A DNA stretch of 64,000 nt from Mustelus asterias (Eukaryota). The notes under the pieces were generated by a model. That model was not told the origin of the DNA. It saw nothing but the letters and a program-made list of their open reading frames with translations, and did no database searches. Shown piece after piece: positions 10,824 through 59,299 of the stretch (positions within the stretch are counted from its first letter, which is position 1; each line of letters begins with the position of its first letter). A program made the position numbers and the translations under genes. Where the stretch lies: contig NC_135808.1 in the NCBI RefSeq assembly GCF_964213995.1, positions 50,158,001-50,222,000 on the forward strand, in the 5' to 3' direction.

Positions 10824-11152
10824 CTAGGCACATTCTGATCTACTGACGCTCTTGCTGAGGGGCGAGGAGAGGCTGACGTGGGTGAGGGCACAGGAGAAGC
10901 GGGCGTTGGACTCCCAGTCGGAGCCAGAGAGGGTCAGCAGGCTGCTGACGCTGTAGGTGTTGTCTGAAGCTCGCAGGTAGTTGCTGGTCTGAACCCCGTT
11001 GGAAATGGCTGCACCATCCTTCTTCCACTTCACCTCCACCTCATCGGGATAGAAGTGATTGGCAAGGCACACCAGGGTGGCAGTGCCCTTGTTCTTGACC
11101 TCCTCCGGGGAGGGGGGCAACAGGGTCAGCGTGGGTTGTGAATTCTCACGGG
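10824..11152 (-). CDS. IGKC: Ig kappa constant exon, cluster 1
   Basis: Pyrimidine tract + AG acceptor (11153..11154); RENSQPTLTLLPPSPEEVKNKGTATLVCLANHFYP...FSCALTH...SRSECA*; C1-set domain with penultimate Cys. Confidence 0.95.
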
Positions 11153-11199
11153 CTGAAAGAGAAGAGAAGGAATTTTAATCACTGCCATTTTCAGGCTTT

Positions 11200-12060
11200 C
11201 AACTTCCCGAATATTGACTGGGATCAAATCAGTGTCAATGTTTCGATGTTGCAGAATTCTGAAAATCCATTCCGGGGGAAATTTTTTAACCAGCACGGAA
11301 CAATCCCAACAAGCGAAGGGGCAGTTTTGGGCAGTTTTATAGAATGAATCTCGGCATGTGGAAGGTGTATCAGTGGGAGAGCATTTGGGTAATAGTGATC
11401 ATAATACAGTTAGATTTAGAGTAGTTACGGAAAAGGGGAAAGATCGATCAAGAGTAAACGTTTTAAATTGGGAAAAGGCCAATTTCACGAAACTGGGATT
11501 TGCCAAAATGGAGAGGAAACAGCGACTTGAAGGTAAATCAGTGTCAGAGCAGTGGGAGGATATTCGAGCTGGAGATGGAGTTCAGAACAAATATGTTCAC
11601 ACAAAGCAATAGCGTGGGACATTGCAAGGAGGATAACTAAGGAATGAATAGGGCAGGTCAGAGAGCAACAAGGTAACTTGTGTGTGGAGGGAGAAGACAC
11701 GGTGATGGTTCTTCATGAATAATTTACATCAGATATCACAAATGAGAGGGATAAAGCTAACATTGTAGTTCAGGAGGAGAGGGATTGTGAAATAATCAAT
11801 GGGATAATGATAGTGTGGGAGGAGATATTAATGTGCTTATCATCTTTGAAAGTGGAAAAATTCCCAGGCCCGGGTGAAATGTATCCCAGGATGCGAAGGG
11901 AAGCATGGGAAGAAAAAGCAGAGACTCTGACCATTATTTTCCAATCCTCTCTGGCTACAGGTGTGGTGTGGGAGGACTGGAGGACGGATAATGCTGTTTA
12001 AAATTACAGGCTGATGGGATTCAAGGGAAAGTGGCACGTTCGATTTCAAATTAGTTCAGT
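11200..12060 (+). mobile_element. Degenerate CR1 fragments in the J-C intron (shared with ~58050..58920)
   Basis: HLGNSDHN and PGPGEMYPR motifs. Confidence 0.7.
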
Positions 12061-12544
12061 GTCTGGGGGTAAAGGTTTGATTTGAAGCTGGTTAAATCAT
12101 TTTGCATATATAAAGAAAGTTACAACAAATTCAGCACTGAAATGGTTAATAATGAGAGTATTTAAAGACACAGTGTCCCTTTAAGAGACTGTTAACCAGT
12201 CAGGAAGCTGGAACTATTGTTCAGTCTGTCTGGGGGATACAGGTTGAGCATCAACAAACCTCAGATCACACACAGATCAGGAGAACTTTATCCCAGAACA
12301 TTGCAGCAGACTTGGATCAACACACTTCACACAGCATTCTGATTGGCTGTCAGTGTAGAAGCTTCCAGATTTCATTTCAAACCTTACCCCCAGCACTTGG
12401 CTGAGGTCAAGGGTGAGGTTAGAATTAGTCTCAGTGTCCAGGGGTCAGACAGGGTCACTGCTCCGAATGACCCCATGACCTCTGGAGGGTGTGAGTGTGT
12501 GGATAATGAGTGAGGGTTAGGATCAGGAATCTCCAACCTCAAAG

Positions 12545-18111: not shown

Positions 18112-18146
18112 TCAGTCTGAGTTTGGTTCCTTTACCGAACGTAAGG
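18112..18146 (-). CDS. IGKJ: Ig kappa J segment, cluster 1 (LTFGKGTKLRL)
   Basis: FGxG motif, GTAAGT donor (18106..18111), adjacent 23-RSS. Confidence 0.95.
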
Positions 18147-18185
18147 CACACTGACAGCTTCCAGTGCAGGAGCTGTACAAAAACC
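18147..18185 (-). promoter_or_regulatory. J 23-RSS, cluster 1
   Basis: CACACTG + 23 bp + ACAAAAACC as read on the plus strand. Confidence 0.95.
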
Positions 18186-18696: not shown

Positions 18697-19243
18697 TTAT
18701 TATATATTATATAAAACTGTGGGATGTGTCAGTACAGGAGGTGGGACTGTGTGTCCATTATTATATATTATATAAAACTGTGGGATGTGTCAGTACAGGA
18801 GGTGGGACTGTGTGTCCATTATTATATATTATATAAAACTGTGGGATGTGTCAGTACAGGAGGTGGGACTGTGTGTCCATTATTATATATTATATAAAAC
18901 TGTGGGATGTGTCAGTACAGGAGGTGGGACTGTGTGTCCATTATTATATATTATATAAAACTGTGGGATGTGTCAGTACAGGAGGTGGGACTGTGTGTCC
19001 ATTATTATATATTATATAAAACTGTGGGATGTGTCAGTACAGGAGGTGGGACTGTGTGTCCATTATTATATATTATATAAAACTGTGGGATGTGTCAGTA
19101 CAGGAGGTGGGACTGTGTGTCCATTATTATATATTATATAAAACTGTGGGATGTGTCAGTACAGGAGGTGGGACTGTGTGTCCATTATTATATATTATAT
19201 TAAACTGTGGGATGTGTCAGTACAGGAGGTGGTGCTGTGTGTG
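18697..19243 (-). repeat. 61-bp minisatellite, ~9 copies, between V and J RSS
   Basis: Sense unit ACACACAGTCCCACCTCCTGTACTGACACATCCCACAGTTTTATATAATATATAATAATGG. Confidence 0.95.
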
Positions 19244-19247
19244 TTGG

Positions 19248-19275
19248 GGTTTTTGTAAGGCTCTGTATCACTGTG
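19248..19275 (-). promoter_or_regulatory. V 12-RSS, cluster 1 (perfect consensus)
   Basis: GGTTTTTGT-12bp-CACTGTG on the plus strand. Confidence 0.97.
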
Positions 19276-19574
19276 TAGAGGGTAGCTGCTATATTGCTGA
19301 CAGTAATAATCAGCGACATCCTCATTCTGTACATTGCTGATTGTCAGGGTGAATCTTGTCCCAGATCCACTGCCGGTGAATCGGTCGGATATTCCTGTGA
19401 ATCGAGTTGCTGCATTATAGATCAGCAGAGCCGGTTTCTGTCCTTCTCGCTGTTGGTACCAACTCACGTAACTGCTAACAGATTGACTGGCCGTACAGGT
19501 GATGGTGGCGGTCTGGCCCAGGCTCACTGACAGCACCGGGGGAGACTGGGTCATGATGATGTCTCCACTGATAC
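19276..19574 (-). CDS. IGKV: Ig kappa V exon, cluster 1
   Basis: [38 protein letters not shown]...[14 protein letters not shown]; AG acceptor, open frame, 12-RSS. Confidence 0.96.
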
Positions 19575-19760: not shown

Positions 19761-19809
19761 CTGCGATGCAGAATGCCAGAGGCCAGAGCAGCTGGATGGC
19801 TGAAATCAT
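19761..19809 (-). CDS. IGKV: Ig kappa leader exon, cluster 1 (MISAIQLLWPLAFCIA)
   Basis: 49-nt exon, phase-1 GT donor, 186-bp intron. Confidence 0.92.
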
Positions 19810-19869
19810 GGTGTGTGGTCGTGTCCCTGTGCCTGGTTACTGATAAACTCTCCCTTCACTGGGCTCTGC

Positions 19870-19965
19870 TTTATAAAGCTGCAGCCTGTCAGAGTCTCAC
19901 TGCCTGTTCCTCAGTTTGTAAATGGTCTGACCCAGAGAAACCACGTCAGCACCTTTCACTTCCTC
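19870..19965 (-). promoter_or_regulatory. V promoter, cluster 1: TATA, TGACGT, EICE
   Basis: TTTATAAA 19870..19877, ACGTCA 19943..19948, TTTCACTTCC 19954..19963. Confidence 0.7.
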
Positions 19966-25296: not shown

Positions 25297-26410
25297 CAAA
25301 GAACAAGAACAAAGAACAAAGAACAGTACAGCACAGGAAACAGGCCCTTCGGCCCTCCAAGCCTGTGCTGCTCCTTGGTCCAACTAGACCAATCGTTTGT
25401 ATCCCTCCATTCCCAGGCTGCTCATGTGACTATCCAGGTAAGTCTTAAACGATGTCAGCGTGCCTGCCTCCACCACCCTACTTGGCAGCGCATTCCAGGC
25501 CCCCACCACCCTCTGTGTAAAAAACATCCCTCTGATGTCTGAGTTATACTTCGCCCCTCTCAGCTTGAGCCCGTGACCCCTCGTGATCGTCACCTCCGAC
25601 CTGGGAAAAAGCTTCCCACTGTTCACCCTATCTATACCCTTCATAATCTTGTATACCTCTATTAGATCTCCCCTCATTCTCCGTCTTTCCAAGGAGAACA
25701 ACCTCAGTCTACCCAATCTCTCCTCATAGCTAAGACCCTCCATACCAGGCAACATCCTGGTAAACCTTCTCTGCACTCTCTCCAATGCCTCCACGTCCTT
25801 CTGGTAGTGCGGCAACCAGAACTGGACGCAGTACTCCAAATGTGGCCTAACCAGCGTTCTATACAGCTGCATCATCAGACTCCAGCTTTTATACTCTATA
25901 CCCCGTCCTATAAAGGCAAGCATACCATATGCCTTCTTCACCACCTTCTCCACCTGTGTTGCCACCTTCAAGGATTTGTGGACTTGCACACCTAGGTCCC
26001 TCTGTGTTTCTATACTCCTGATGACTCTGCCATTTATTATATAACTCCTCCCTACATTATTTCTTCCAAAATGCATCACTTCGCATTTATCCGGATTAAA
26101 CTCCATCTGCCACCTCTCCGCCCAATTTTCCAGCCTATCTATATCCTGCTGTATTGCCCGACAATGCTCTTCGCTATCCGCAATTCCAGCCATCTTCGTG
26201 TCATCCGCAAACTTGCTGATTACACCAGTTACACCTTCTTCCAAATCATTTATATATATCACAAATAGCAGAGGTCCCAGTACAGAGCCCTGCGGAACAC
26301 CACTGGTCACAGACCTCCAGCCGGGAAAAGACCCTTCGACCACTACCCTCTGTCTCCTATGGCCTAGCCAGTTCTCCACCCATCTAGCCACTTCTCCTTG
26401 TATCCCATGC
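25297..26410 (-). mobile_element. Young CR1 insertion with uninterrupted ORF2 3' half
   Basis: 354-aa ORF with SGVPQGSVLGP and KFADDTK; absent from arm 2. Confidence 0.9.
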
Positions 26411-26713
26411 CTTATCTTTTGCACTGATGTGCTGGATTCCTCCATCACTGAGAATGGGGATATTTATGAAGCCTCCTCCTCCAGTGAGTTGTTTAATTAA
26501 TGGTGTCCACCAACATTCACGGCAGCGCTTTGCCCTGATCCATTGGTTGTGGGATGGTTTAGTTCTATCACGTGCTGCTTCTACTGTTTGACACACAGTC
26601 CTGTGTTGAAGCTTCACCAGGTTAACACCTCATTTTACAATTTATCTGCTGTTGCTCCTGGCATGCCCTCCTGCACTCTTCATTGAATCAGGGTTGATTC
26701 CCTGGCTTGGTGG

Positions 26714-27242
26714 TAGGGAGGCCAGATGTCCGGCTTTAGGCCGGACAGTCCGGCTTTTGAGCACTCTGTCCTCCATCCGGCGCCACCTCGAGCCGGACGC
26801 TAATTTGTCCTCCTTTTTTGGGTCACAATGCCCGGGTACTGATTGATGACAGCACCGGGCCAATAGGAAGAGGAGTGGGACTGCCAATTGGATCGAATGA
26901 GGGAAGGTGGAGCTGTGCGTCGATTTAAGCCTGCGCAGTGCGAGTCATGGGGAGGCAGATCAGGGTTTATCTCTTGTATTGACAAACGGTAAGAGGAAAA
27001 TGGCGGAGATCAGGGAGCGATAAATCTGGAGGATGATGAAGAAGGCTTTATAAGCATGTTGTACAAGTCCAAACCCCGAAAAAGAGTTTCCCGATGTCAT
27101 GTTTGCACCGAGCCAGGCCACAGCTCCAATGTTCAGCTCCGCATTAACGGCCGCCATCTTAATTGGATGCGATATGCAGCAGTGCGCATGCGCGGCTGCC
27201 ATCTTTGTCCTCCTTTTTGGAAATTTGGAAATGGCCACCCTA
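26714..27242. mobile_element. hAT-type MITE (529 bp)
   Basis: Ends TAGGGAGGCCA / TGGCCACCCTA; perfect 8-bp TSD CTTGGTGG. Confidence 0.85.
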
Positions 27243-27545
27243 CTTGGTGGTAATGGTAGAGTGGGGGATATGCCGGGCCATGAGGTTACAGATTGTGGTT
27301 GAGTACAATTCTGCTGCTGCTGATGGCCCACAGTGCCTCATGGATGCCCAGTTTTGAGTTGCTAGATCTGTTTGAAATCTATCCCATTTAGCACGGTGGC
27401 AGTGCCACACAACACGATGGAGGGTACCCTCAATGTGAAGATGGGATTTTATCTCCACAAGGACTGTGCAGTGGTCACTCCTACCGATACTGTCATGGAC
27501 AGATGCATCTGCGGCAGGCAGGTTGGTGAAGATGAGGTCAAGTAT

Positions 27546-28248
27546 GTACAAGTATAGATACATAATTCCCTAAAAGTGGTGTCACAGGTAGATAGGGTCG
27601 TAAAGAGTGCTTTTGGTACATTGGCCTTTATAAATCAAAGTATTGAGTATGAGAGTTGGAATGTTATGGTGAGGTTGTATAAGACATTGGTGAGGCCGAA
27701 TTTAGAGTATTGTGTGTAGTTTTGGTCACCTAATTACAGGAAGGATATTAATAAGGTTGAAAGAGTGCAGAGAAGGTTTACAAGGATGTTGCCGGGACTT
27801 GAGAAACTGAGTTACAGAGAAAGGTTGAATAGGTTCGGACTTTGTTCCCTGGAGCGTAGAAGAATGAGGGGAGATTTGATCGAGGTGTATAAAATTATGA
27901 TGGGTATAGATAGAGTGAATGCAAGCAGGCTTTTTCCACTGAGGCTAGGGGAGAAAAAAACTCGAGGACATGGGTTAAGGGTGAAGGGGGAAAAGTTTAA
28001 AGGGAATATTAGGGGGGGGCGTCTTCACACAGAGAGTGGTGGGAGTGTGGAATGAGCTGCCACATGAAGTGGTGAATGCGGACTCACTTTTAACATTTAA
28101 GAAAAACTTGGACAGGTGCATGGATGAGAGGGGTGTGGAGGGATATGGTCCAGGTGCAGGTCAGTGGGACTAGGCAGAAAAATGGTTTGGCACAGCCAAG
28201 AAGGGCCAAAAGGCCTGTTTCTGTGCTGTAATGTTCTATGGCTCTATG
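27546..28248 (+). mobile_element. CR1 3' fragment (arm 1 only)
   Basis: RRFTRMLPG...TRGHGLRV; (TCTATG) tail. Confidence 0.85.
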
Positions 28249-29697
28249 TTTCTCCCTCTTGTTGGTTCCCTCCCCACCTGCCGCAGTCCCAGTCTAGCAG
28301 CGATGTCCTTTAGGACCCGGCCAGCTCGGTGTGTGGTGGTGCTACCGAGTAACTCTTGGTGATGGACATTGAAGTCCCCACCCAGAGTACATTCTGTGCC
28401 CGAGCCACCCTCAGTGCTTCATCCAAGTGCTGTTCAACATGGAGGAGAACTGATTCATCAGCTGAGGGTGGACGGTATGTGGTAACCAGGGGAGGTTTCC
28501 TTGTCCATGTTTGACATGTTACCGAGAGACTACATGGAGTCTGGAATGTTGTTGAGGATTCCCAGGATAACTCCCTCCTGACTGTATCCCACTGTGCCTT
28601 CTGTGCTGGGAGATTGGAGGTAGTGGACACGGTTCACCATTTTCTCCCGTCTCAGTAACAAACATCCAGCTGCTCTGAGCTCCTTCTTTCACTTCCTCTG
28701 TTGGTTACGTTTCAATCTTCCGATCTGGCAGTCTTTGCAGTTATTTTTGACATTGGGGATTTGTGCTGTGGTCTGAATCTCTAACAATAACTGTCCAATC
28801 AGTGAAAAGAACAGCAGCTCAGAGCAGTCAGGACTGAGGAGCCAGGCTCACTGGGAAACACATTGGGAAGATCAAAGCCATTGGTCTTCAGCTCCCGATA
28901 CAAACTCCATCCCTCCCCCTGAGCACTGTCTGCTGCTCAACCAGACTCTCTACAACATTGGCCTCATCTTTGACGCCGATCTGACCCTCCAAATCCTCCA
29001 CATCACAAAGATTACTCTGCTCTCTCTTTCTTAGATCCAAAGTGGATGTTTTCACATTCTCCACATTGAACTCTATCTTCCATTGTCTTCAGACCCCATC
29101 ACAAACTCTGTTCCCTCAACACTGATTCCATCCCTTCCCCATTGGAGTGTCTGACACTGAACCACACACTCCACAGCCATGGTGTCCTATTTGACCCTGA
29201 GATGAGTTTCCCACCACATCATCCACTCCATCACTAAGACCACCTAGTTCCACCTCAGTAACATCTCCCGAGTACCCCCTGCCTCACATCATCCTCTGCT
29301 GAAAATCTCATCTGTGTCTTTGTTACCTCTGAACGTTACTATTCCAATGCTGTCCTGTCCGACCTCACACCCACCACCCTCCGTTATCATCAGCTCACCC
29401 AGAACTCTGCTGCCCGGATCTGAACTCACACCAAATCCCGTTCACCCGTCACCCCCTGTGTTCACTGACCTACACTGACCCCCGGTCCAGCCATGCCCCG
29501 ATTTTAACATAAACATCCTGCCTCTCAAATCCCTCCCTATCCTGCACCCTCCCTATCTCTGTAACCTCCTCTAAGCTGCCTAACTTAGTGTGCTCAGTAA
29601 TCTTGGATATGTGTCTCTCTATTGCTTCATCCAAGTCATTGACAAATATAGTGAAAAGCTGAGGCTTCAGCACAGACCCCTGGGGACATCACTATTC

Positions 29698-30810
29698 TTA
29701 GAACATAGAACAGTACAGCACAGAACAGGCCCTTCGGCCCACGATGTTGTGCCGAGCTTTGTCTGAAACCCAGATCAAGCTATTTCCTCCCTATCATCCC
29801 GAAGTACTCCATGTGCCTATCCAATAGCTTCTTAAATGTTCCTAAAGTTTCTGACTCCACTATCCCTGTAGGCAGTCCATTCCACACCCCAACCACTCTG
29901 AGTAAAAAACCTACCTCGGACATCCTTCCTATATCTCCCACCATGAACCCTATAGTTATGCCCCCTAGTTACCGTTCCATTCACCCGAGGAAATAGTCTT
30001 TGAACGTTCACTCTATCTATCCCCCTCATCATCTTATAAACCTCATCAAGGCTCCTCTCAACCTCCTCCGCTCCAAAGAGAAAAGCCCAAGTTCCCTCAA
30101 CCTTTCCTCATAAGACCTACCCTCCAAACCAGGCAGCATCCTGGTAAATCTCCTTTGCACTCTTTCCAGTGTCTCCACAACCTTCTTGTAGTGAGGTGAC
30201 CAGAACTGCACACAATATTCCAAATGTGGTCTCACCAAGGTCCTGTACAGTTGCATCATAACCCCACGGCTCTTAAACTCAAACCCCCTGTTAATGAACG
30301 CCAACACACTATAGGCCTTCTTCACGGCTCTATCCACTTGAGTGGCAACCTTCAGAGATCTATGGATATGAACCCCAAGATCTCTCTGTTCCTCCACATT
30401 CTTCAGAACCCTACCTTTGACCCTGTAATCCACATTTAAATTAGTCCTACCAAAATGAATCACCTCGCATTTGTCTGGTTAAACGCCATTTGCCATTTTT
30501 CAGCCCAGCTCTGCATCCTATCTATGTCTCTTTGCAGCCTACAACAGCCCTCCACCTCATCCACTACTCCACCAATCATGGTGTCATCAGCAAATTTACT
30601 GATCCACCCTTCAGCCCCATCCTCCAAGTCATTTATAAAAATGACAAATAGCAGAGGACCCAGCACTGATCCCTGTGGCACTCCGCTGGTAACCGGTTTC
30701 CAGTCTGCAAATTTTCCATCCACCACCACCCTCTGTCTTCTATGAGATGGCCAGTTACTTCGCCAATCGGCAAAACTTCCCTCTATCCCACACATCCTTA
30801 CTTTCTTCAT
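29698..30810 (-). mobile_element. CR1 LINE fragment
   Basis: SGVPQGSVLGP, KFADDT, LVRPHLEYC. Confidence 0.88.
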
Positions 30811-38800: not shown

Positions 38801-39619
38801 CTTGTGGTCAGTTGTTGGGAAAAATTATTTTTCCAGACCCTTCAATTGTCTCAAACACAGATTCCTTCTCATTTCTTGTTTTTTATTCCTTCTGGCCACG
38901 ATTCTCTTCAAGTCAGTTTCTCTATTGCCTCGATCGTTTAAAAAACTGTTTTCTTACTCTTTCGGCCATATTAACCATTTCATGTCAAAGGCGGTGTGAG
39001 GGGGGGGAGGTCTCTCACTCTGGACCTTTGCTTATCTCCCCCTGTCTGGTTCCAATGTCACAGCTGATGGCCAGATTATTAAATTCAGGTCTCTTCAGTA
39101 GTTTGTATGTTGTGTCCTTTTTCCCGCACTCCATCTCTGACCCTGAATCATTTGCTCAGAACCTTTTACACAGACAATAGTTAGCAACTGATCTGGTTCA
39201 GTTTGTCTGGAGGGACTTTCCAGTCCAATAAAGTGTTTTCATGTAAGGAGCGGTGAGAGTTCCTTTCAGAGTCTCACTGAGGTTCAGAACCGGACTCTGG
39301 CCGTAACAGGAATGAGCGACTGGAACAAGTATTGTGTTAAAACAACCATTTTATTGAATAATGATAAAAAGAATATATAAGAAAGATAATGTGTATGAAA
39401 AGGAAGAAAGATAACTTTATTGAAAGGAGAAAGCACTCTGTATATATCTGAAGAATAGAAGACAGTCGGATGTTTGTTTAAACACAAACGATAACCCCAA
39501 TTTGCTCTGTTCCATGACAGCTCCCCCAGAATTGGTACACGTTACCCTCCCCTGGGTACACACATGCCCAAGTTGCTGAGTAACCTCAATGGGTGAACAC
39601 TACAGTCAGTCACTTAAGG

Positions 39620-39920
39620 GGCGATACGGTGGCACAGTGATTAGCACTGATGCCTCACAGGGCCAGGGAACCGGGTTCGATTCTCATCTTGGGTCACAGT
39701 CTGTGCTGAGTCTGCATGTTCTCCCCGTGTCTGTGTGGGTTTCCTCCGGGTGCTCCGGTTTCCTCCCACTGTCTGCAAGACGTGCTGGTTAGGAGTATTG
39801 GCCATGCTAAATTCTCCCTCAGTGTACCCAAACAGGCATCAGAGTGTGGCAACGAGGTGATTTTCACAGTAACTTCATTGCAGCGTTAATGTAAGACTAA
39901 TTGTTGCATTAATAGATAAA
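39620..39920 (+). mobile_element. V-SINE
   Basis: A/B boxes, V-domain. Confidence 0.8.
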
Positions 39921-40289
39921 ATTTTGTTTAAACGTTTCTGTTTCTAACCCTTCCTCCTGTTGTCCCTGGGTGACTATTCCACCTTGGCTGCAGCACTCAG
40001 TCTCTGAAACAATGTCTCTTTAACCTGGATTTCTGGCTCCATTCCAGTCTTGTGAAGACTGTGACACTGTCTGTCCCAAAACAAATCTCAGTTCTTCCCA
40101 CAGGGACCTCAATGTGAAGCAGACTTTGTAATATTCAGCTTGTTGATGGAGCTCTTGATGATGTCTTCACATCTGTCATCAATCAGCTGTTATGTCCATC
40201 AATTAAACGTCATCTTCTGATGCTTCAGGTGAGCACTCCAGATAAGATTCCTCAGCGACTTGGTCTGTAGACCAAGGCTCACAGAATGC

Positions 40290-40407
40290 ATCAGGTGATG
40301 AAGGAGCAGCGCTCCAAAAGCTCGTGCTACCAAATAAACCTGTTGGACATTAATCTGGTGTTGTGAGACTACTTACTGTGCCTACCCCAGTCCAACACCG
40401 GCAACAC
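40290..40407 (+). mobile_element. Penelope-like terminal fragment with disrupted hammerhead-like motif
   Basis: TSD CACAGAATGC; TGATGA-A-GGAGCagcGCTCC-AAAAGC; sequence shared with the 33605 element. Confidence 0.6.
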
Positions 40408-40789
40408 CACAGAATGCGGTAGAACAGTACCTGTAATAAACAAGAAACAACTTATTTTAATATTCTAGCTTGAGAAAGTGGAGAAACAAAAGATTGAGTC
40501 TGAACAGCAGTTGTGTGGCCAGTCCAGAGAGAAAACACGATCTGGAAAAACAGCTCACCCCTGATTCTTCTTCTGAATGAATCAGAGCACAATCACAGCT
40601 GGGTTAAGATCAGTGTGGATCAGGTGAGAAAATACAAACTGAGTTCAAATATTAAAACTCAAAGCAGAGCAGAAATAAAATGTAAAATACAAAATTGTAA
40701 AAGTTAGTGGCAGCAGCAGGCCTCAGGCCGAGACTCAGAATATTTTTGAATTAGAAATCAGGCCTATTTGACTTTTTTTCATTCATTCA

Positions 40790-41620
40790 TGGGACATGGC
40801 ATTGCTGGCTGGCCAGCAGTTATTGCCCATCCCTAGTTGCCCTTGAGAAGGTGGTGCTGAGCTGCTTTCTTGAATCACTGCAGCCCACGGGCTGTGGGTT
40901 GACCCACAATGCCACTAGGGAGGGAATTCCAGGATTTTAACCCAGCAACTGTGAAGGAACGGTGATATATTTCCAAGTCAGGTCAGTGAGTGCCTTGGAG
41001 ATTAACTTGCAGGTGGCGGTGTTCCCATGTATCTGCTGCCCTTGTCCTTCTAGATGGAAGTGGTCGTGGGCTTGGAAGGTGCTGTCTAAGGATTTTTGGT
41101 GAATTACTGCAGTGCATCTTGTAGATAGTACACACTGCTGCTACCGAGTGTCGGTGCTGAAGGGATTGAATGTTTGTAGATGTGGTGCCAATCAAGTGGG
41201 CTGCTTTGTCCGGGATTGTCAAGCTTCTTGATTGTTGTTGGAGCTGCACCCACCCAGGCAAGTGGGGAGTGTTCCATCACACTCCTGACTTGTAGATGGT
41301 GAATAGGCTTTGGGGAGTCAGGAGATGAGTTACTCACCGCAGTATTCCTTGCCTCTGACCTTCTCCTGCAGCCACTGTGTTTCTGTGGTGAGTCCAGTTG
41401 AGTTTCTGGTCAATGGTGACCCCAAGGATGTTGACAGTGGGGGATTCAGTGATGGTAACACCATTGAATGTCAAAGGGCATTAGAGTGTCTCTTATTGGT
41501 GATGGTCATTGCCTGGCATTTGTGTGGCGTGAATGTTACTTGCCACTTGTCAGCCCTTATGATGGAGGGAAGTTCATTGATGAAGCAGCTGAAGATTGTT
41601 GGGCCGAGGACACGACTCTG
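40790..41620 (-). mobile_element. 3' part of CR1-clade LINE (same family as 23505..28600)
   Basis: QVRSVMEHSPLAW, AVCTIYKMH, LGPTIFSCFIN. Confidence 0.75.
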
Positions 41621-44600
41621 AGGAAGTCCAGACATTAACATGTTTTGTGTCTTTATCACCTTCCCCTCTGTTAAGAATTGGGGAAAATGAAAATAAACAA
41701 ATGACATTGGGAAAAAAGAAAATGAAACAGGGAGATGTCTGAAGAGATGTTGAGATGTGAATTGGCATCTCAGTGAGAAAAGCAAGTGTTTACTGAGGTA
41801 ACTGAGGAAAGCAATGGGGTTTAGAAAAGATAACTTCAAAGTGGAGGGATAAGGAAATCGACACGGAAATGCCCAAAGCCGATTCCACAGGGTGGGTAAC
41901 ATCAAAGGGAAAGAATGATATATCCATAGCAAAGTGACTGGGGGAAAGGGGAGACAGACACAGACACAGCTAACATCAGCACACACTCAGCTGCAGAAAC
42001 AGTCTCCTGAAAAGAAGCAGCAGGTTTCACCTTCACTGAAACTGAAGACAGTTTTCCCGAACGCTGACACATAACCTGTGTGTGGTAATTATTCACTGGA
42101 TTTAGCTCACAGAGTTACATAATATTGGATTTTTTTTGGAACAAAGGGACATCTCAGTGTTCAGGAAACGTAGGTGATTGAAAACAAAGGGGTAGCTTCA
42201 TGTAATTCCCGGGGGAAGAGTCTGGTCTTTGTGGTGTGGAGGATTTGGGGGAGATCAGATTGGGTCAAAGATGAGGCCAATGTTGTAGAGAGTCTGGTTG
42301 AGCAGCAGACAGTGCTCAGGGGGAGGGATGGAGTTTGTATCGGGAGCTGAAGACCAATGGCTTTGATCTTCCCAATGTGTTTCCCAGTGAGCCTGGCTCC
42401 TCAGTCCTGACTGCTCTGAGCTGCTGTTCTTTTCACTGATTGGACAGTTATTGTTAGAGATTCAGACCACAGCACAAATCCCCAGTGTCAAAAATAACTG
42501 CAAAGACTGTCAGATCGGAAGATTGAAACGTAACCAACAGAGGAAGTGAAAGAAGGAGCTCAGAGCAGCTGGATGTTTGTTACTGAGACGGGAGAAAATG
42601 GTGAACCGTGTCCACTACCTCCAATCTTCCAGCACAGAAGGCACAGTGGGATACAGTCAGGAGGGAGTTATCCTGGGAATCCTCAACAACATTCCAGACT
42701 CCATGTAGTCTCTCGGTACCATGTCAAACACGGACAAGGAAACCTCCTCTGGTTACCACATACCATCCCCCCCTCAGCTGATGAATCAGTTCTCCTCCAT
42801 GTTGAACAGCACTTGGATGAAGCACTGAGGGTGGCAAGGACACTCTGGGTGGGGATTTCAATGTCCAAATGTTACTCGGTAGCACCACCACACACCGAGC
42901 TGGCCGGGTCCTAAAGGACATAGCTGCTAGACTGGGACTGCGGCAGGTGGTGAGGGAACCAACAAGAGGGAGAAACATACTCGACCTCATCCTCACCAAC
43001 CTGCCTGCCGCAGATGCATCTGTCCATGACAGTATCGGTAGGAGTGACCACCGCACAGTCCTTGTGGAGATAAAATCCCATCTTCACATTGAGGATACCC
43101 TCCATCGTGTTGTGTGGCACTGCCACCGTGCTAAATGGGATCGATTTCAAACTGATCGAGCAACTCAAAACTGGCATCCATGAGGCACTGTGGGCCATCA
43201 GCAGCAGCAGAATTGTACTCAACCACAATCTGTAACCTCATGGCCCGGCATATCCCCCACTCTACCATTACCACCCAGCCTGGGGATCAACCCTGGTTCA
43301 ATGAAGAGCGCAGGAGGACATGGCAGGAGCAACAGCAAATAAACTGAAAAATGAGGTGTTAACCTGGTGAAGCTACAACACAGGACTGTGTGTCAAACAG
43401 CAGAAGCAGCAAGTGACAGACAGAGCTAAACCATCCCACAAACAATGGATCAGATCTAAGCTCTGCAGTCCTGCCACATCCAGCCGTGAATGGTGGTGGA
43501 CAATTAAACAACTCACTGGAGGAGGAGGCAACACAAATATCCCCATCCTCAATGAGGGAGGAGGCAATCACATCAGTGCAAAATATATGGCTGATACATT
43601 TACAACTGGATACTGGAACGTATCTGCGTCCTGACAATAATCCAGCAATAGTCCTGAAGACTTGTGATCCAGAACTTGCCACGCCCCTCGCCAAGTTGTT
43701 CCAGTACAGCTACAACACTGGCATTTATCCGGCAATGTGGACAATTGCCCAGATATGTCCTGTGTACCAAAAAACAGGACAAATCTATTCTGGCCTCTTA
43801 CCGCCCCATCAATCTACTCTCAATCATCAGTGAAGTGATTTAATTTGTTGACAGTGCTATCGAGCCGCACTTACTCAGCAATAACCTGCTCACTCAGTTT
43901 GGGTTCTGCCAAACTGGGTCACTCAGCTCATTACACCCTTGGTTCAAACATGGACAAAAGAGCTGAATTCCAGAGGCAAGGTGAGAGCGACAGTCCTTGA
44001 CATCAAAGCTGCATTTGAGCGAGTGTGGCTAGTTGGAGTCATCCCCAGCACAAAGGAAGATGGTTGTGGTTATAGGATTTCAATCAGAGATTGCCGTGGG
44101 ACATCACTGCAGGAGTTCCTCCTAAGCCCAATCATCTTCAGCTGCTTCGTCAATGACCTTCCCTCCATCATAAGGTCAGAAGTGGGAATGTTCACCAATG
44201 ATTGCACAATGTTCAGCACCCCTCACCATTCACATCTTCTCCAGTACTGAAGAGGTCTATGTCCAAATGCAGCAAGACTTGGACAATATCCAGGTTTGGG
44301 CTGACAACTGGCAAGTAACAATAAGACCACGGAAGTGCCAAGCAATGACCATCTCCAACTAGAGAGAATTTTAACATCTCCCCTTGACATTCAATGGTAT
44401 TACCTCACTAAATCTCCCACTTTAAACATTTTGTGGTTACGATTGACTAGAAACTTAACTGGGCTAGCCATATAAATACTGTGATACAACAATAGGTCAG
44501 TGGTTAGGAATACTGTGAAGAGTAACTCACCTCCTGACTTCCCAGAGCCTGTCCACCATCTACAATGCACAAGTCAGTTATGTGATGGAATACTCTCCAC

Positions 44601-44700
44601 TTGCCTGGAACTCTCCAAGAACTCTCAAGAAGCTTGACATCATCCAGAACAAAGGAGCTCTGCTTGATTGGCACCCCTTCCACAAACATTCCACCACCTT

Positions 44701-45372
44701 AGAAAATCATAGAAACCCTATGGGGCGGCACGGTAGCACAGTGGTTAGCACTGCTGCTTCACAGCTCCAGGGTCCCGGGTTCGATTCCCGGCTCGGGTCA
44801 CTGTCTGTGTGGAGTTTGCACATTCTCCTCGTGTCTGCGTGGGTTTCCTCCGGGTGCTCCGGTTTCCTCCCACAATCCAAAGATGTGCAGGTTAGGTTGA
44901 TTGGCCAGGTTAAAAATTGCCCCTTAGAGTCCTGGGATGTGTAGATTAGCGGGTAAATATGTGGGGGTAGAGCCTGGGTGGGATTGTGGTCGGTGCAGAC
45001 TCGATGGGCCGAATGGCCTCCTTCTGCACTGTAGGGTTTCTATGATGATTCTACAGTACAGAAAGAGGCCATTCGGCCCATCAAGTCTGCACCGACCACA
45101 ATCCCACCCAGGCCATACCCCTATATCCCTACATATTTTACCCACTAATCCCTCTAACCTACGCATCTCAGGACCCTAAGGGGCAATTTTTAGCATGGCC
45201 AATCAACCTAACCTGCACATCTTTGGACTGTGGGAGGAAACCGGAGCACCTGGAGGAAACCCACGCAGACACGAGGAGAATGTGCAAACTCCACACAGAC
45301 AGTGACCCAAGCCGGGAATCGAACCCAGGTCCCTGGAGCTGTGAAGCAGCAATGCTAACCACTGTGCTACCG
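44701..45372. mobile_element. Tail-to-tail inverted pair of V-SINEs
   Basis: Plus copy ~44721..45050 and minus copy ~45054..45372, near-complementary. Confidence 0.9.
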
Positions 45373-46514
45373 CGCTACCCCTTCAAACATTGGCAGCCGT
45401 GTGTACCATCTACAAGATGCCCTGCATGAATTCACCAAGTTTCCTGAGGCAGCACCTTCTAAACCACTGACCAGTTCATCTGGAAAGGCAAAAGCAGCAG
45501 ATCCCTGGGAACACCACCACCTGGAGATTCCCCTCCAAGTCACTCAACATCCTGATTTGGAAATATATCACCGTTCCTTCGCTGTTGCTGGGTAAAAATC
45601 CAGCTAACCAGCATTTCTTTGGGCTGTGGAAGGAAACCGGAGCACCCGGAGGAAACCCATGCAAATACGGGGAGAAACGTGCAAACTCCACCCAGACAGT
45701 GACCCAAGCCGGAAATCGAACACAGGTCCCTGGCGCTGTGAGGCAGCAGTGCTAACCTCTCTAACAGCACTGAGGGTGTACCTACACCACATGGTCTACA
45801 GCGGTTCAAGAAGGCAGCTCACCACCACTTCCTCAAGGACAATTAAGAAATGGTAATAAATGCTGGCATCGCCAGTGACACGCACACCCCATAAACGAAT
45901 AAACTTTTAAAAATTCCCACATTACTCGATGCCCCATTGTGTGTGTTGAAGTCTGGATCCTGTCAGCAGGATATTTGACTGCAGGAACCTTCACCACTGG
46001 GTCCAATTCCGGCCCCACCTGAAATTCACACAGAATCTGAATTTATATAGCACCTTATTGTACAACACAGCCCAAGATTTTTCTTAGAGCAGCAGTAAGA
46101 GGAATGGGGGAGGGGCTGGGGGAACTTTAGGAAGAGAGATCAAGGCTTGAGTGAAAGAATGGAGTTTGATGGGGAGAGAGACATGGAAAGGGGGAGGGAT
46201 TAAGGGTGGGAGGTCAGAGAGCAGGGCCTGGGCGTCTGAAGGCTCTGCTGTCAGTGGTGGGATGAAGGAAGCAGCGATGGGCCGGGGAGCAGAGCCAGCA
46301 GATGGAAAGTGAAGGAGGGAATGTGAGTTTGCAGCAGGACGCAGAGGTAGGGAGGAGTGAGGTCATGGAGGGAATTGCAGGGCAGTGAGGTCAAGGGTGA
46401 CAGGTCAATGAGGTCAGGAGGATTGTTGGAACGACACTTGGTGTGACACCAATGTTTACTGGTCCCTATTGGAGGGTCTTTATTTATTTATTTTATAGAT
46501 TAAAGTTTAGTGTT

Positions 46515-47962: not shown

Positions 47963-48058
47963 GAGGAAGTGAAAGGTGCTGACGTGGTTTCTCTGGGTCA
48001 GACCATTTACAAACTGAGGAACAGGCAGTGAGACTCTGACAGGCTGCAGCTTTATAAA
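47963..48058 (+). promoter_or_regulatory. V promoter, cluster 2: EICE, TGACGT, TATA
   Basis: GAGGAAGTGAAA 47963..47974, TGACGT 47980..47985, TTTATAAA 48051..48058. Confidence 0.7.
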
Positions 48059-48118
48059 GCAGAGCCCAGTGAAGGGAGAGTTTATCAGTAACCAGGCACA
48101 GGGACACGACCACACACC

Positions 48119-48167
48119 ATGATTTCAGCCATCCAGCTGCTCTGGCCTCTGGCATTCTGCATCGCAG
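48119..48167 (+). CDS. IGKV: Ig kappa leader exon, cluster 2 (MISAIQLLWPLAFCIA)
   Basis: ACCATG start; G|GTACAA donor. Confidence 0.92.
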
Positions 48168-48353: not shown

Positions 48354-48651
48354 GTATCAGTGGAGACATCATCATGACCCAGTCTCCCCCGGTGCTGTCA
48401 GTGAGCCTGGGCCAGACCGCCACCATCACCTGTACAGCCAGTCAAGGCATTAGCAATGATTGTGACTGGTTTCAACAGCGAGAAGGACAGAAACCGGCTC
48501 TGCTGATCTATGATGCATCAAATCGATTCACAGGAATATCCAACCGATTCAGTGGGAGTCAATCTGGGACAAGATTCACCCTGACAATCAGCAATGTACA
48601 GAATGAGGATGTCGCTGATTATTATTGCATCCAACGTAATAGCTACCCCTA
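48354..48651 (+). CDS. IGKV: Ig kappa V exon, cluster 2
   Basis: DIIMTQSP...[18 protein letters not shown]...[14 protein letters not shown]; CAG acceptor, open frame. Confidence 0.96.
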
Positions 48652-48679
48652 CACAGTGATACAGAGCCTTACAAAAACC
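48652..48679 (+). promoter_or_regulatory. V 12-RSS, cluster 2 (perfect consensus)
   Basis: CACAGTG-ATACAGAGCCTT-ACAAAAACC. Confidence 0.97.
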
Positions 48680-48684: not shown

Positions 48685-51600
48685 ACACACAGCACCACCT
48701 CCTGTACTGACACATCGCACAGTTTTATATAATATATAATAATGGACACACAATCCCACCTCCTGTACTGACACATCCCACAGTTTTATATAATATATAA
48801 TAATGGACACACAGTCCCACCTCCTGTACTGACACATCTCACAGTTTTATATAATATATAATAATGGACACACAGCACCACTTCCTGTACTGACACATCC
48901 CACAGTTTTATATAATATATAATAATGGACACACAGTCCCACCTCCTGTACTGACAGATCCCACAGTTTTATATAATATATAATAATGGACACACAGTCC
49001 CACCTCCTGTACTGACACATCCCACAGTTTTATATAATATATAATAATGGACACACAGCACCACCTCCTGTACTGACACATCCCACAGTTTTATATAATA
49101 TATAATAATGGACACACAGTCCCACCTCCTGTACTGACACATCCCACAGTTTTATATAATATATAATAATGGACACACAGTCCCACCTCCTGTACTGACA
49201 CATTCCACAGTTTTATATAATATATAATAATGGACACACAGTCCCACCTCCTGTACTGACACATCCCACAGTTTTATATAATATATAATAATGGACACAC
49301 AGTCCCACCTCCTGTACTGACACATCCCACAGTTTTATATAATATATAATAATGGACACACAGTCCCACCTCCTGTACTGACACATCCCACAGTTTTATA
49401 TAATATATAATAATGGACACACAGTCCCACCTCCTGTACTGACACATCCCACAGTTTTATATAATATATAATAATGGACACACAGTCCCACCTCCTGTAC
49501 TGACACATCCCACAGTTTTATATAATATATAATAATGGACACACAGTCCCACCTCCTGTACTGACACATCCCACAGTTTTATATAATATATAATAATGGA
49601 CACACAGTCCCACCTCCTGGACTGACACATCCCACTGTTTTATATAACATATAATCATGGACACACAGCACCACCTCCTGTACTGACACATCCCACAGTT
49701 TTATATAATATATAATAATGGACACACAGTCCCACCTCCTGTACTGACACATCCCACATTTTTATATAATATATAATAATGGACACACAGTCCCACCTCC
49801 TGTACTGACACATCCCACAGTTTTATATAATATATAATAATGGACACACAGCCCCACCTCCTGTACTGACACATTCCACAGTTTTATATCATATATAATA
49901 ATGGACACACAGTCCCACCTCCTGTACTGACACATCCCACAGTTTTATATAATATATAATAATGGACACACAGTCCCACCTCCTGTACTGACACATCCCA
50001 CAGTTTTATATAATATATAATAATGGACACACAGTCCCACCTCCTGTACTGACACATCCCACAGTTTTATATAATATATAATAATGGACACACAGTCCCA
50101 CCTCCTGTACTGACACATCCCACAGTTTTATATAATATATAATAATGGACACACAGTCCCACCTCCTGTACTGACACATCCCACAGTTTTATATAATATA
50201 TAATAATGGACACACAGTCCCACCTCCTGTACTGACACATCCCACAGTTTTATATAATATATAATAATGGACACACAGTCCCACCTCCTGTACTGACACA
50301 TCCCACAGTTTTATATAATATATAATAATGGACACACAGCACCACCTCCTGTACTGACACATCCCACAGTTTTATATAACATATAATCATGGACACACAG
50401 TCCCACCTCCTGTACTGACACATCCCACAGTTTTATATAATATATAATAATGGACACACAGTCCCACCTCCTGTACTGACACATCCCACAGTTTTATATA
50501 ATATATAATAATGAACACACAGTCCCACCTCCTGTACTGACACATCCCACAGTTTTATATAATATATAATAATGGACACACAGCACCTCCTCCTGTACTG
50601 ACACATCCCACAGTTTTATATAATATATAATAATGGACACACAGTCCCACCTCCTGTACTGACACATCCCACAGTTTTATATAATATATAATAATGAACA
50701 CACAGTCCCACCTCCTGTACTGACACATCCCACAGTTTTATATAATATATAATAATGGACACACAGTCCCACCTCCTGTACTGACACATCCCACAGTTTT
50801 ATATAATATATAATAATGGACACACAGCCCCACCTCCTGTACTGACACATTCCACAGTTTTATATCATATATAATAATGGACACACAGTCCCACCTCCTG
50901 TACTGACACATCCCACAGTTTTATATAATATATAATAATGGACACACAGTCCCACCTCCTGTACTGACACATCCCACAGTTTTATATAATATATAATAAT
51001 GGACACACAGTCCCACCTCCTGTACTGACACATCCCACAGTTTTATATAATATATAATAATGGACACACAGTCCCACCTCCTGTACTGACACATCCCACA
51101 GTTTTATATAATATATAATAATGGACACACAGTCCCACCTCCTGTACTGACACATCCCACAGTTTTATATAATATATAATAATGGACACACAGTCCCACC
51201 TCCTGTACTGACACATCCCACAGTTTTATATAATATATAATAATGGACACACAGTCCCACCTCCTGTACTGACACATCCCACAGTTTTATATAATATATA
51301 ATAATGGACACACAGCACCACCTCCTGTACTGACACATCCCACAGTTTTATATAACATATAATCATGGACACACAGTCCCACCTCCTGTACTGACACATC
51401 CCACAGTTTTATATAATATATAATAATGGACACACAGCACCACCTCCTGTACTGACACATCCCACAGTTTTATATAATATATAATAATGGACACACAGTC
51501 CCACCTCCTGTACTGACACATCCCACAGTTTTATATAATATATAATAATGGACACACAGCACCTCCTCCTGTACTGACACATCCCACAGTTTTATATAAT

Positions 51601-52280
51601 ATATAATAATGGACACACAGTCCCACCTCCTGTACTGACACATCCCACAGTTTTATATAATATATAATAATGAACACACAGTCCCACCTCCTGTACTGAC
51701 ACATCCCACAGTTTTATATAATATATAATAATGGACACACAGCACCTCCTCCTGTACTGACACATCCCACAGTTTTATATCATATATAATAATGGACACA
51801 CAGTCCCACCTCCTGTACTGACACATCCCACAGTTTTATATAATATATAATAATGGACACACAGCACCACCTCCTGTACTGACACATCCCACAGTTTTAT
51901 ATAATATATAATAATGGACACACAGTCCCACCTCCTGTACTGACACATCCCACAGTTTTATATAATATATAATAATGGACACACAGCACCACCTCCTGTA
52001 CTGACACATCCCACAGTTTTATATCATATATAATAATGGACACACAGTCCCACCTCCTGTACTGACACATCCCACAGTTTTATATAATATATAATAATGG
52101 ACACACAGTCCCACCTCCTGTACTGACACATCCCACAGTTTTATATAATATATAATAATGGACACACAGTCCCACCTCCTGTACTGACACATCCCACAGT
52201 TTTATATAATATATAATAATGGACACACAGTCCCACCTCCTGTACTGACACATCCCACAGTTTTATTTAATATATAATAA
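48685..52280 (+). repeat. 61-bp minisatellite, ~59 copies, between V and J RSS
   Basis: Period 61; variants GTCCC/GCACC, ATC/ATA, TGG/TGA. Confidence 0.97.
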
Positions 52281-52609: not shown

Positions 52610-52648
52610 GGTTTTTGTACAGCTCCTGCACTAGAAGCTGTCAGTGTG
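52610..52648 (+). promoter_or_regulatory. J 23-RSS, cluster 2
   Basis: GGTTTTTGT-23bp-CAGTGTG. Confidence 0.95.
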
Positions 52649-52683
52649 CCTTACGTTCGGTAAAGGAACCAAACTCAGACTGA
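52649..52683 (+). CDS. IGKJ: Ig kappa J segment, cluster 2 (LTFGKGTKLRL)
   Basis: FGKG motif; A|GTAAGT donor; identical to J1. Confidence 0.95.
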
Positions 52684-56714: not shown

Positions 56715-57195
56715 CACAAAGAACAAAGAACAATACAGCACAGGAACAGGCCCTTCGGCCCTCCAAGCCCGCGCCGCTCCCTGGTCCAAACTAGACCATT
56801 CTTTTGTATCCCTCCATTCCCACTCCATTCATGTGGCTATCTAGATAAGTCTTAAACGTTCCCAGTGTGTCCGCCTCCACCACCTTGCCCGGCAGCACAT
56901 TCCAGGCCCCCACCACCCTCTGTGTAAAATATGTCCTTCTGATATCCGTGTTAAATCTCCCCCCCCCTCTGCTCACCTTGAACCTATGACCCCTCGTGAA
57001 CGTCACCACCGATCTGGGAAAAAACTTCCCCCGTTCACCCTATCTGTGCCTTTCATAATTTTATACACCTCTATTAGGTCACCCCTCATCCTCCATCTTT
57101 CCAGTGAGAACAACCCCAGTTTACCCAATCTCTCCTCATAACTAAACCCTTCCATACCAGGCAACATCCTGGTAACCCTCCTCTGCACTCTCTCT
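56715..57195 (-). mobile_element. CR1 3' fragment (arm 2 only)
   Basis: LERVQRR...FTQRVVGAWN. Confidence 0.85.
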
Positions 57196-58970
57196 AATGA
57201 TGTGGACAATTCATAACCAGGCAATTTTCCACATTGCCAAGTTGATGCCAGTGTTGTACCTGCACTGGTACCTTTGTGATCTGGATTTGGCAGGACTGCA
57301 GAGCTTTGATCTGATCCATTGTTTGTGGGATGGTTTAGCTCTGTCTGTCACTTGCTGCTTCTGCTGTTTGGCACACAGTCCAGTGTTGTAGCTTCACCAG
57401 GTTAACACCTCATTTTTCAGTATGTCTGCTGTTGCTCCTGCCATGTCCTCCTGCACTCTTCATTGAACTGAAAGCAGCAGAGAATCCACAGAAATGGAAT
57501 GATGCTTCAAATCCCACTCCTGAGACGGTCATGGCAGATGCTATAGAAATGTAATTCTGTCTTTGAGCTTGGGGATTCCTGATCCTTGCCCATTGTCCAC
57601 ACACTCGCAGCCTCCAGGGTTCATGGGGGCATTCGGAACAGTGACCTTTACTGATCCCTGGACACTGGGACTAATTCTAGCCTCACCCTTAAACTCAGCC
57701 CAGTGCTGTGCGGTAAGGTTTGAAATGAAATTTAGAAGCTTCTACACTGACAGCCAATCAGAATGCTGTGTGAACTGTGTTGATCCAAGTCTGCTGCAAT
57801 GTTCTGGGATAAAGTTCTCCTGATCTGTGTGTGATCTGAGGTTTGTTGAAGCTCAACCTGTTTCCCCCAGACAGACTGAACAATAATTCCAGCTTCCTGA
57901 CTGGTTAACAGTCTCTTAAAGGGACACTGTGTCTTTAAATACTCTCACTATTAACCATTTCAGTGCTGAATTTGTAGTCACCTTCATTACAAATGTTTTA
58001 GTCACATTGCAAAATGATTCAACCAGCTTCAAATCAAACCTTTACCCCAGACACTGAACTACTTTGAAATCCAACTTGTCACTTTCCCTCGGACCCCATC
58101 AGCTTTTAATTTTAAACAATGGTACAGCATTATCCGTCCTCCAGTCCTCCCACACCACACCTGTAGCCAGAGAGGATTGGGAAATAATGGTCAGAGTCTC
58201 TGCTTTTTCTTCCCTTGCTTCCCTTCGCATCCTGGGATACATTTCACCCGGGCCTGGGAATTTTTCCACTTTCAAAGATGATAAACACATTAATACCTCC
58301 TCTCTCACTATCATTATCCAATTAATTATTTCACAATCTCTCTCCTCCTGAACTACAATGTCAGCTTTGTCCCTCTCATTTGTGATATCTAATGTAAATT
58401 GTTCGTTCAGAACCATCTCTGTGCCTTCCCCCTCTGCACACAAGTTACCTTGTTGCTCTCTAACCTGCCCTATTCATTCCTTAGTTATCCTCTTTGCAAT
58501 GTCCCACGCTATTGCTTTGTTTGAATGTATTTGTTCTGAACTCTATCTCCAGCTCGAATATCCTCCCACTGCTCTGACACTGATTTACCTTCAAGTCGCT
58601 GTTTCCGGTTCATTTTGCCAAATTCCAGTTGAGTGAAATTGGCCTTTTCCTAATTTAAAACTTTTACACTTGATCGATCTTTCCTCTTTTCCATAACTAC
58701 TCTAAATCGTTAACTTTATGATGATCATTATTACCCAAATGTTCCCCCACTCATACACCTTCCAGCTACCCAGATTTGTTCTCTAAAATTACCCCAAACT
58801 GCCCCTTCTCTTGTTGGGATTGTTCCGTCCTGGTTAAAACAGTTCCCTGGAATAGATTGTCGGAATTGTGCAATGTTGAAACATTGACACTGATTTGATC
58901 CCAGTTTATATTCGGGAAGTTGAAAACCCTGAAAATGACAGTGATTAAAATTCCTTCTCTTCTCTTTCAG

Positions 58971-59299
58971 CCCGTGAGAATTCACAACCCACGCTGACCC
59001 TGCTGCCCCCCTCCCCGGAGGAGGTCAAGACCAAGGGCACTGCCACCCTGGTGTGCCTTGCCGATCACTTCTATCCCGATGAGGTGGAGGTGAAGTGGAA
59101 GAAGGACGGTGCAGCCATTTCCAACGGGATTCAGACCAGCAACTACCTGCGAGCTTCAGACAACACCTACAGCGTCAGCAGCCTGCTGACCCTCTCTGGC
59201 TCCGACTGGGAGTCCAACGCCCGCTTCTCCTGTGCCCTCACCCACGTGAGCCTCTCCTCGCCCCTCAGCAAGAGCGTCAGGAGATCAGAATGTGCCTAG
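58971..59299 (+). CDS. IGKC: Ig kappa constant exon, cluster 2
   Basis: TCTCTTTCAG acceptor; RENSQPTLTLLPPSPEEVKTKGTATLVCLADHFYP...RRSECA*; in phase with the J donor. Confidence 0.95.

Follow-up and report, generated by a model that had tools for sequence, protein, structure and literature searches.

Alternating kappa light-chain clusters of Mustelus asterias and a signal joint that probably unites two cluster copies

Is the joining of V and J segments in shark immunoglobulin (Ig) loci confined to the cluster in which the segments lie? The question is raised by a stretch of 64,000 nt from Mustelus asterias (contig NC_135808.1, forward strand, positions 50,158,001 to 50,222,000; the whole stretch is called “the window” below, and plain position numbers are counted from its first letter). 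It contains two complete shark Ig kappa V-J-C miniclusters placed head-to-head, cluster 1 on the minus strand and cluster 2 on the plus strand. Confinement is the standard account for shark Ig genes, put down to distance and to a single polarity, and neither of these holds in the kappa array to which the window belongs. A preliminary description of the window had proposed that the two clusters could exchange V segments by inversion. The reading that we consider fairly probable is that the clusters are self-contained and join their own V and J, that cluster 7 of the array records one probable germline leak in which RAG joined two clusters of the same strand, and that inversion is an occasional by-product.

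The literature considered here consists of parts of PMC3014032, PMC12227049, PMC2193153, PMC2193156, PMC2435157, PMC5192425, PMC13320880, PMC13190342 and PMC2191167. In the parts drawn on, within-cluster joining in sharks is explained by long distances and shared polarity: published heavy-chain (IgH) clusters lie at least 120 kb apart and the light-chain (IgL) segments have one polarity. In zebrafish IgL, inter-cluster joining by inversion is described over distances up to 81 kb (Zimmerman et al. 2008, PMC3014032).

The C exon of cluster 2 was used as query, and among 150 of 713 candidates scored there were 22 C-kappa matches (96-100% identity), all on C8, the contig of the window, at 50.169-51.087 Mb. 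The window pair is the first ~75-kb unit of an array of ~0.92 Mb on a single contig, made up of 22 C exons, 21 J segments, 21 leaders and 18 V exons, with a C-to-C spacing of 26-48 kb across most of its length. The order of strands is minus, plus repeated eight times, then +, +, -, +, -, +; the first 16 clusters therefore alternate strictly. The J coding sequence is the same in 21 of 21 segments. All 18 V exons are open-framed, share the polarity of their own J and carry an identical, perfect 12-recombination signal sequence (12-RSS), while the 23-RSSs of the J segments are nearly identical across the array. Thus the signals do not tie a V to its own J. No germline V-J joined kappa gene was found in the array, and genome searches found no further kappa V, J or C on other contigs.

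For comparison with the window we used 91 neighbouring stretches (974 kb), none of which contains an N gap. The 8 head-to-head and 7 tail-to-tail spacers of the first 16 clusters align mainly in the direction of the reference spacer, each with copy-specific differences, and in their flanks plus- and minus-type clusters are mostly separate lineages. These data bear on the concern that tandem clusters were misassembled into the inverted layout of the window. Such an error would be favoured by the highly repetitive nature of the array, but a head-to-head spacer recurring 8 times and a tail-to-tail one 7 times, each with its own differences, in gap-free stretches of mostly separate lineages, leave this explanation almost no credit. 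The window pair is one unit of the array and not a special one, and its layout is probably not a misassembly, as the preliminary description had required. The alternation is most simply explained by tandem amplification of one inverted pair: a single V-J-C minicluster would have been duplicated in inverse orientation, and the resulting ~75-kb two-cluster unit amplified in tandem. The repetition of the geometry is for this reason not independent evidence of selection for it. The array-wide layout and the joint described below are more surprising than the window pair itself.

Cluster 7 (minus strand, outside the window) carries between V7 and J7 a 23-RSS and a 12-RSS fused heptamer-to-heptamer at C8:50402777/8, with no base lost or added, i.e. 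a signal joint. The order of the cluster is V7-12RSS-interval b-23RSS/12RSS-interval a-23RSS-J7-C7. A pattern describing such a joint gave 1 match in 3.68 Gb and its reversed control gave 0; the pattern is tight, and joints with other heptamers would escape it.

The two sides of the joint resemble different paralogues. Interval b is the interval of cluster 11 (628 of 628 nt), and V7 with its promoter and interval shows 1 difference from cluster 11 in 1,463 nt. Over 15 kb on the V side, private substitutions number 19 in cluster 7, 10 in cluster 11 and 30 in cluster 13; over 7 kb on the J side they number 144, 10 and 15 respectively, the first one lying 66 nt past the J start. Interval a has its own variants of the 61-bp repeat that fills the V-J intervals, from the first unit onward, and painting by kilobase places the paralogue switch at the joint. 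The block nearly identical to cluster 11 measures 15-19 kb, and the region is collinear with that of clusters 13, 14 and 15 for about 70 kb. The two fused RSSs probably derive from different cluster copies, which suggests that RAG did join two copies at least once.

The layout of cluster 7 is the one that an inversion is predicted to leave in the unjoined partner, and an inversional origin was consequently tested. Both flanks of cluster 7 align in plus orientation to minus-strand clusters. An inversion of the head-to-head pair 7/8 or of the tail-to-tail pair 6/7 was rejected as the source of the joint: clusters 6 and 8 carry no joint, and neither spacer is flipped. The inversional origin fails also on the 15 kb upstream of V7 and on the flanks of C7, all of which run in plus orientation and belong to the minus-strand type. 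If an excised circle had simply been reinserted, V and J-C would come from one cluster, and this route is therefore disfavoured. The joint best fits, on these alignments, a germline RAG join between same-strand clusters.

Such a join could have proceeded as follows. In a germ cell or an early embryo, RAG would have paired the J 23-RSS of a cluster 11-like copy with the V 12-RSS of another copy on the same strand. The coding joint would have departed either in cis, on an excised circle holding at least one ~75-kb unit, or in trans, on the reciprocal chromatid, and the signal joint would have stayed, giving V-12RSS...23RSS/12RSS...23RSS-J-C. That RAG has acted across shark clusters is a conclusion we hold with moderate confidence. 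If so, a signal joint placed at a paralogue switch would be genomic evidence for an inter-cluster RAG event in the germline, an event that has been proposed as a first step towards new D segments and the merging of clusters.

Parts of this scheme have precedents. In a pseudo-normal join the signal joint remains on the chromosome. Pseudo-normal deletional Vk-Jk joins are robust in mouse Igk when the RSSs are strong, outward-facing RSSs being joined by diffusion, as in our case; there, however, the joins are somatic, engineered and within one locus, whereas the joint of cluster 7 is apparently germline and lies between duplicated clusters (PMC13190342). Germline RAG joining of shark kappa genes has been published (Lee et al. 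2000, PMC2193156), and the shark cases given in PMC2193156 and PMC2193153 comprise pre-joined VJ genes, which are coding joints, and a single hybrid joint. Cluster 7 resembles them as an RSS-precise change in a germline Ig cluster that is recent by its divergence. Lewis and Wu (2000; PMC2193153, Fig. 2B ii) suggested that D segments could stem from signal joints formed between clusters with inserted bases; this route is proposed and does not figure among the events supported in sharks. Cluster 7 is like their intermediate, an inter-cluster signal joint between a V-RSS and an RSS-J, but has no inserted bases (zero) between the heptamers. Our literature search, which covered few subscription papers, found no report of an alternating shark kappa array or of a germline signal joint.

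Several observations weigh against the reading of self-contained clusters with one inter-cluster leak. In nurse and horn shark IgH, joining is described as confined to the cluster, 1 rearrangement of 97 being a possible exception (PMC2435157, PMC2191167). The assembly lacks the reciprocal coding joint; 18 of 18 V exons still have their RSS. For four of 23 public runs (contigs from 2 studies, maybe of other species; contigs drop rare variants and are no proof of absence), no listed piece bridges the joint, and in each run a listed contig goes from the 23-RSS into J. The somatic rarity of inversion is an assumption of this reading. Finally, of 21 clusters, clusters 12 and 16 change their nearest paralogue near V/J without a signal joint, so that a within-cluster event followed by unequal crossover can be envisaged.

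In that alternative the joint of cluster 7 arose within one cluster, by a trans join between sister chromatids or by reinsertion of a circle, and an unequal crossover later swapped interval, J and C. The switches of clusters 12 and 16 speak for it, as does the shared 61-bp repeat of the V-J interval, which could promote crossover. But interval a differs from the first repeat unit, which would require a crossover within about 100 nt of the joint, and a very recent one given the single difference from cluster 11 in 1,463 nt. Moreover the sister pairs 1/9, 4/10, 8/14 and 11/13 remain sisters on either side of the V-J interval. We judge this course unlikely; were it true, germline RAG activity would be shown but inter-cluster pairing would not.

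A somatic origin, in which the assembler took a long read from a lymphocyte with an inter-cluster deletion and dropped the intervening unit, appears very improbable. The length of the cluster 11-like block, about that of one long read, would fit, and so would the lack of a bridging contig in the four runs, although contigs from which rare variants are dropped, and from species perhaps different, are a poor test. Against it, 15 kb of the block contain 19 private changes, the block lies in a region collinear for about 70 kb with clusters 13-15, and other contigs contain no spare kappa V, J or C. If this origin were nevertheless the true one, somatic inter-cluster joining would itself be shown.

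We return to the reading with self-contained clusters, in which each cluster would be a gene with its own promoter and candidate enhancer, and its V would normally be joined, by deletion, to the J of that cluster at 0.6-4 kb. Since the RSSs are not cluster-specific, the restriction would rest on distance and on which cluster is open, a restriction that can leak. The V-RSS lies 628-3,997 nt from its own J and at least 28.4 kb from any other J. Where the array is regular, the closest J of another cluster is at 28-36 kb (head-to-head, joined by inversion; this range covers the first eight units), the second-nearest at 38-46 kb (tail-to-tail, inversion) and the nearest on the same strand at 73-80 kb. 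In the window, V1-RSS is 33.4 kb from J2 and V2-RSS 30.5 kb from J1; for V2, J3 is moreover at 44 kb and J4 at 77 kb. The 61-bp tandem repeat fixes the V-J distance in each cluster and might tune the frequency of rearrangement.

On this geometry the preliminary description proves correct: a V1-J2 join would invert 19276-52648 and V2 would then face J1. Its further proposal was that head-to-head pairs are flip units of 2V x 2J-C, with V1-J2 inversion at a meaningful rate in B cells followed by V2-J1. The RSSs are indeed strong, compatible and nearly identical; the 28-36 kb to be bridged is less than the 81 kb of the zebrafish inversion (PMC3014032); and V2 has the smallest ratio of partner to own distance in the array (30.5 vs 4.0 kb). 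In addition the plus-strand clusters 4, 10 and 12, which have no V, keep 23RSS-J-C with an intact V opposite at 31-32 kb. However, the pair is not closed, V2 reaching J3 and J4 as well; none of the 15 spacers (8 head-to-head, 7 tail-to-tail) is flipped, i.e. no germline inversion is recorded, and the sole recorded event is a same-strand one. The gain would also be small. As the J segments are identical and C1 and C2 are four residues apart, V1-J2-C2 would be almost the same chain as V1-J1-C1, and the second join, V2-J1, would leave the first in place. The preliminary description expected V/C shuffling and a second rearrangement attempt, not J diversity; an inversion does not remove the first join and changes at most 4 C residues. 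By our inference, only same-strand joins would delete an intervening cluster and could edit.

Mixed orientation is also found at a light-chain locus on C13, where the 1 cluster checked has V and J fused without RSS; mixed orientation hence needs no recombinational purpose. All this makes flip units improbable in our view: that of the window is unproven and probably of little functional weight, and inversional V1-J2 or V2-J1 joining, which the same chemistry permits, is probably an occasional by-product and not a flip mechanism. The earlier suspicion that joining is not confined within the cluster fares better through cluster 7, whose joint is probably inter-cluster, but that event is between same-strand clusters and not an inversion. 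The second light-chain locus (C13:60.05-61.42 Mb), presumably lambda-like, contains some 30 C-like matches, grouped in runs whose orientation is mixed.

A broader reading, which we regard as tentative, is that RAG in B cells reaches neighbouring clusters at a measurable rate, both by inversion (towards the partner or the V-less clusters 4, 10 and 12) and by same-strand deletion over ~73-78 kb, which would remove a rearranged cluster in between and provide a kind of light-chain editing. Cluster 7 would then be a germline-fixed product of such joining: a V-(zero-length D)-J gene at its beginnings, in which junctions could be processed at two sites, and a proposed intermediate in the origin of D.

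The clusters without V are informative in this respect. In clusters 4, 10 and 12 (C8:50282258-50283376, 50507935-50509053 and 50582665-50584031) one deletion common to all three, reaching from the leader intron to within the first 61-bp repeat, has removed the V exon and its 12-RSS, while promoter, leader, 23RSS-J and C are kept. Such clusters might be transcribed in sterile form or take up V segments from elsewhere. Any VJ transcript that carries one of their C exons must come from inter-cluster joining, provided that chimeras of the polymerase chain reaction (PCR) and alleles are excluded; with a resolved map and three V-less J-C clusters, the within-cluster rule is directly testable. The diagnostics proposed earlier, i.e. 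C and RSS spacer differences between the window clusters, are real but do not single out cluster 1: over 837 nt V1 shows 0 differences from V9, and C1 and C9, one listed base apart, encode the same protein, which weakens these diagnostics. C11, C13 and C18 are identical, and so are C4 and C10; in this assembly V2, C2 and the spacer variant of J2 each occur once. In cluster 20 (C8:50977574-50977897) the C-kappa exon is open, and its vicinity showed no V, leader or J.

Zebrafish IgL resembles the array in having a V opposite the J of another cluster, with compatible RSSs and at less than 81 kb. There a V frequently has the opposite polarity to the rest of its own cluster, and leapfrog joining is seen in complementary DNAs; here each V has a J of the same polarity within 4 kb. 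The nearest relatives are nurse shark NS4 and horn shark type III kappa, which likewise have one V, J and C per cluster with a 12-RSS on V and a 23-RSS on J; like NS4 (PMC2193156), the window clusters have a 186-nt leader intron and a J that ends in A before the donor. In the present array, by contrast, linkage is resolved, with 22 C in 0.92 Mb on alternating strands, and there is no germline-joined kappa gene but one retained signal joint.

The preliminary description had also supposed that the pair might share central enhancers. The head-to-head spacer of the window contains two inverted copies of a ~770-nt element, 13.8 kb apart: 28245..29011 (minus strand, upstream of cluster 1), with a LINE-like part, a ~400-nt locus-specific core, E-boxes and a motif at 28698 resembling EICE (PU.1/IRF), and its inverted copy 42226..42979 (plus strand, upstream of cluster 2), with an EICE-like motif at 42540. 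The element is found 4.5-12 kb upstream of 21 of 21 leaders, in the orientation of the cluster, and in 2 orphan copies (C8:50.768 and 50.831 Mb). A genome search with the 400-nt core gave 23 strong matches, none of them outside the array, and 12 weak partial matches elsewhere. From 28645 to 28944, within the core, each block of 50 columns has 46-50 invariant ones; parts of the LINE-like portion have 23-38. With the EICE consensus as we take it to be, such a motif occurs in 23 of 23 copies, together with 2-3 E-boxes each, and 44 of the 49 EICE-like motifs in the 974 kb lie in the element or at promoter position -154. On these motifs the element is a candidate enhancer. One conserved element per cluster favours cluster autonomy and speaks against a shared central enhancer, though the two copies of the spacer could act together. 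A scan of the 974 kb for CTCF-like sites, with the motif as we presume it, gave 0 exact and 13 one-mismatch sites; these are inconsistent between units and we therefore make no claim of an insulator.

Apart from a mismatch in the J-RSS heptamers, which is a small correction, the anatomy of the window agrees with the preliminary description, in which the head-to-head intact pair, its coordinates and distances, the RSS spacer and the four C differences are all borne out. The window is an inverted duplication whose arms are 86-99% identical in pieces, a similarity that chance does not come near to explaining. By their sequence, both clusters are shark Ig kappa (NS4/type III) miniclusters, with one V, J and C in a single polarity, a 12-RSS on V and a 23-RSS on J. 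The C exon is 81-91% identical to several shark proteins named kappa light chain, and 84% to nurse shark chain P0011. Both V and both C frames are open, the splice sites are canonical, and the masked parts of the window overlap no exon, RSS or splice site.

In cluster 1 (minus strand) the promoter of V1 lies at 19866..19965, with a TATA-like motif at 19877 and a PU.1/IRF (EICE)-like motif at 19965. It is followed by the leader exon (19761..19809), with a GT donor and the 186-nt intron, and by the V1 exon (19276..19574), identical to V9, whose part of the third complementarity-determining region (CDR3) starts CQQYSSYPL. The V1 12-RSS (19248..19275) has perfect consensus heptamer and nonamer. 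The 61-bp tandem repeat has 9 copies in the V1-J1 interval (18697..19242, no strand), where V-RSS and J are 1,129 nt apart. The J1 23-RSS (18147..18185, listed on the plus strand) has the heptamer CACACTG, one mismatch from the consensus as in 21 of 21 J segments, and a consensus nonamer; J1 (18112..18146, FGKGTKLRL) has a GTAAGT donor, and the C1 exon (10824..11152) is of the KNK, ANH, GVQ, VSRS type, its protein being that of C9.

In cluster 2 (plus strand) the promoter of V2 is at 47963..48062, with an EICE-like motif at 47963 and a TATA-like motif at 48051, 28.2 kb from that of cluster 1. The leader exon (48119..48167) has a canonical splice site, and the open V2 exon (48354..48651), unique among 18 V, has a CDR3 start CIQRNSYP and an extra cysteine in CDR1 (NDCDW). 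The perfect consensus 12-RSS (48652..48679) is followed by 59 copies of the 61-bp repeat (48685..52280, no strand), the V-RSS to J distance of 3,997 nt being the longest of 18. The J2 23-RSS (52610..52648, listed on the minus strand) has the spacer variant CTAGAAG, found in 1 of 21 J-RSSs, where that of J1 has CTGGAAG; J2 (52649..52683) has the same sequence as J1. The C2 exon (58971..59299), unique among 22, differs from C1 by four residues (KNK/KTK, ANH/ADH, GVQ/GIQ, VSRS/VRRS), and an exact look-up of its sequence in the collection gave no entry. A motif scan found no exact octamer near either V promoter of the window; a variant with two mismatches is present in 19 of 21 V promoters of the array and a related variant in the other 2. 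An octamer-like motif with one mismatch lies inside the V-J interval of most clusters.

Some features of the array lie apart from these questions. V16 shares with V2 the additional cysteine in CDR1 (NDCDW), and V6 and V21 have an additional cysteine in the germline part of CDR3. V21 (C8:51007521-51008460) has a repeat insertion of ~400 nt in the leader intron, its V frame still being open. The alternation breaks at clusters 16-18 (C8:50.73-50.87 Mb): cluster 16 is a chimera with its switch within the V exon, and clusters 17 and 18 are on the plus strand yet have minus-type upstream flanks, which points to an inversion without signal joint. A 4.4-kb tandem duplication at C8:50877.5-50890.6 kb (99.97% identity) is very recent or a duplication of the assembly, and a satellite-like array of ~29 kb lies between clusters 21 and 22 (C8:51042-51071.5 kb). 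In the window, an Rfam scan of 26000-46000 gave 0 matches. Reverse-transcriptase fragments of long interspersed nuclear elements (LINEs) are numerous throughout it, and short open reading frame fragments at 336-1148, 4509-5491 and 33916-36259 look, by eye, like integrase or envelope remnants of long terminal repeat elements.

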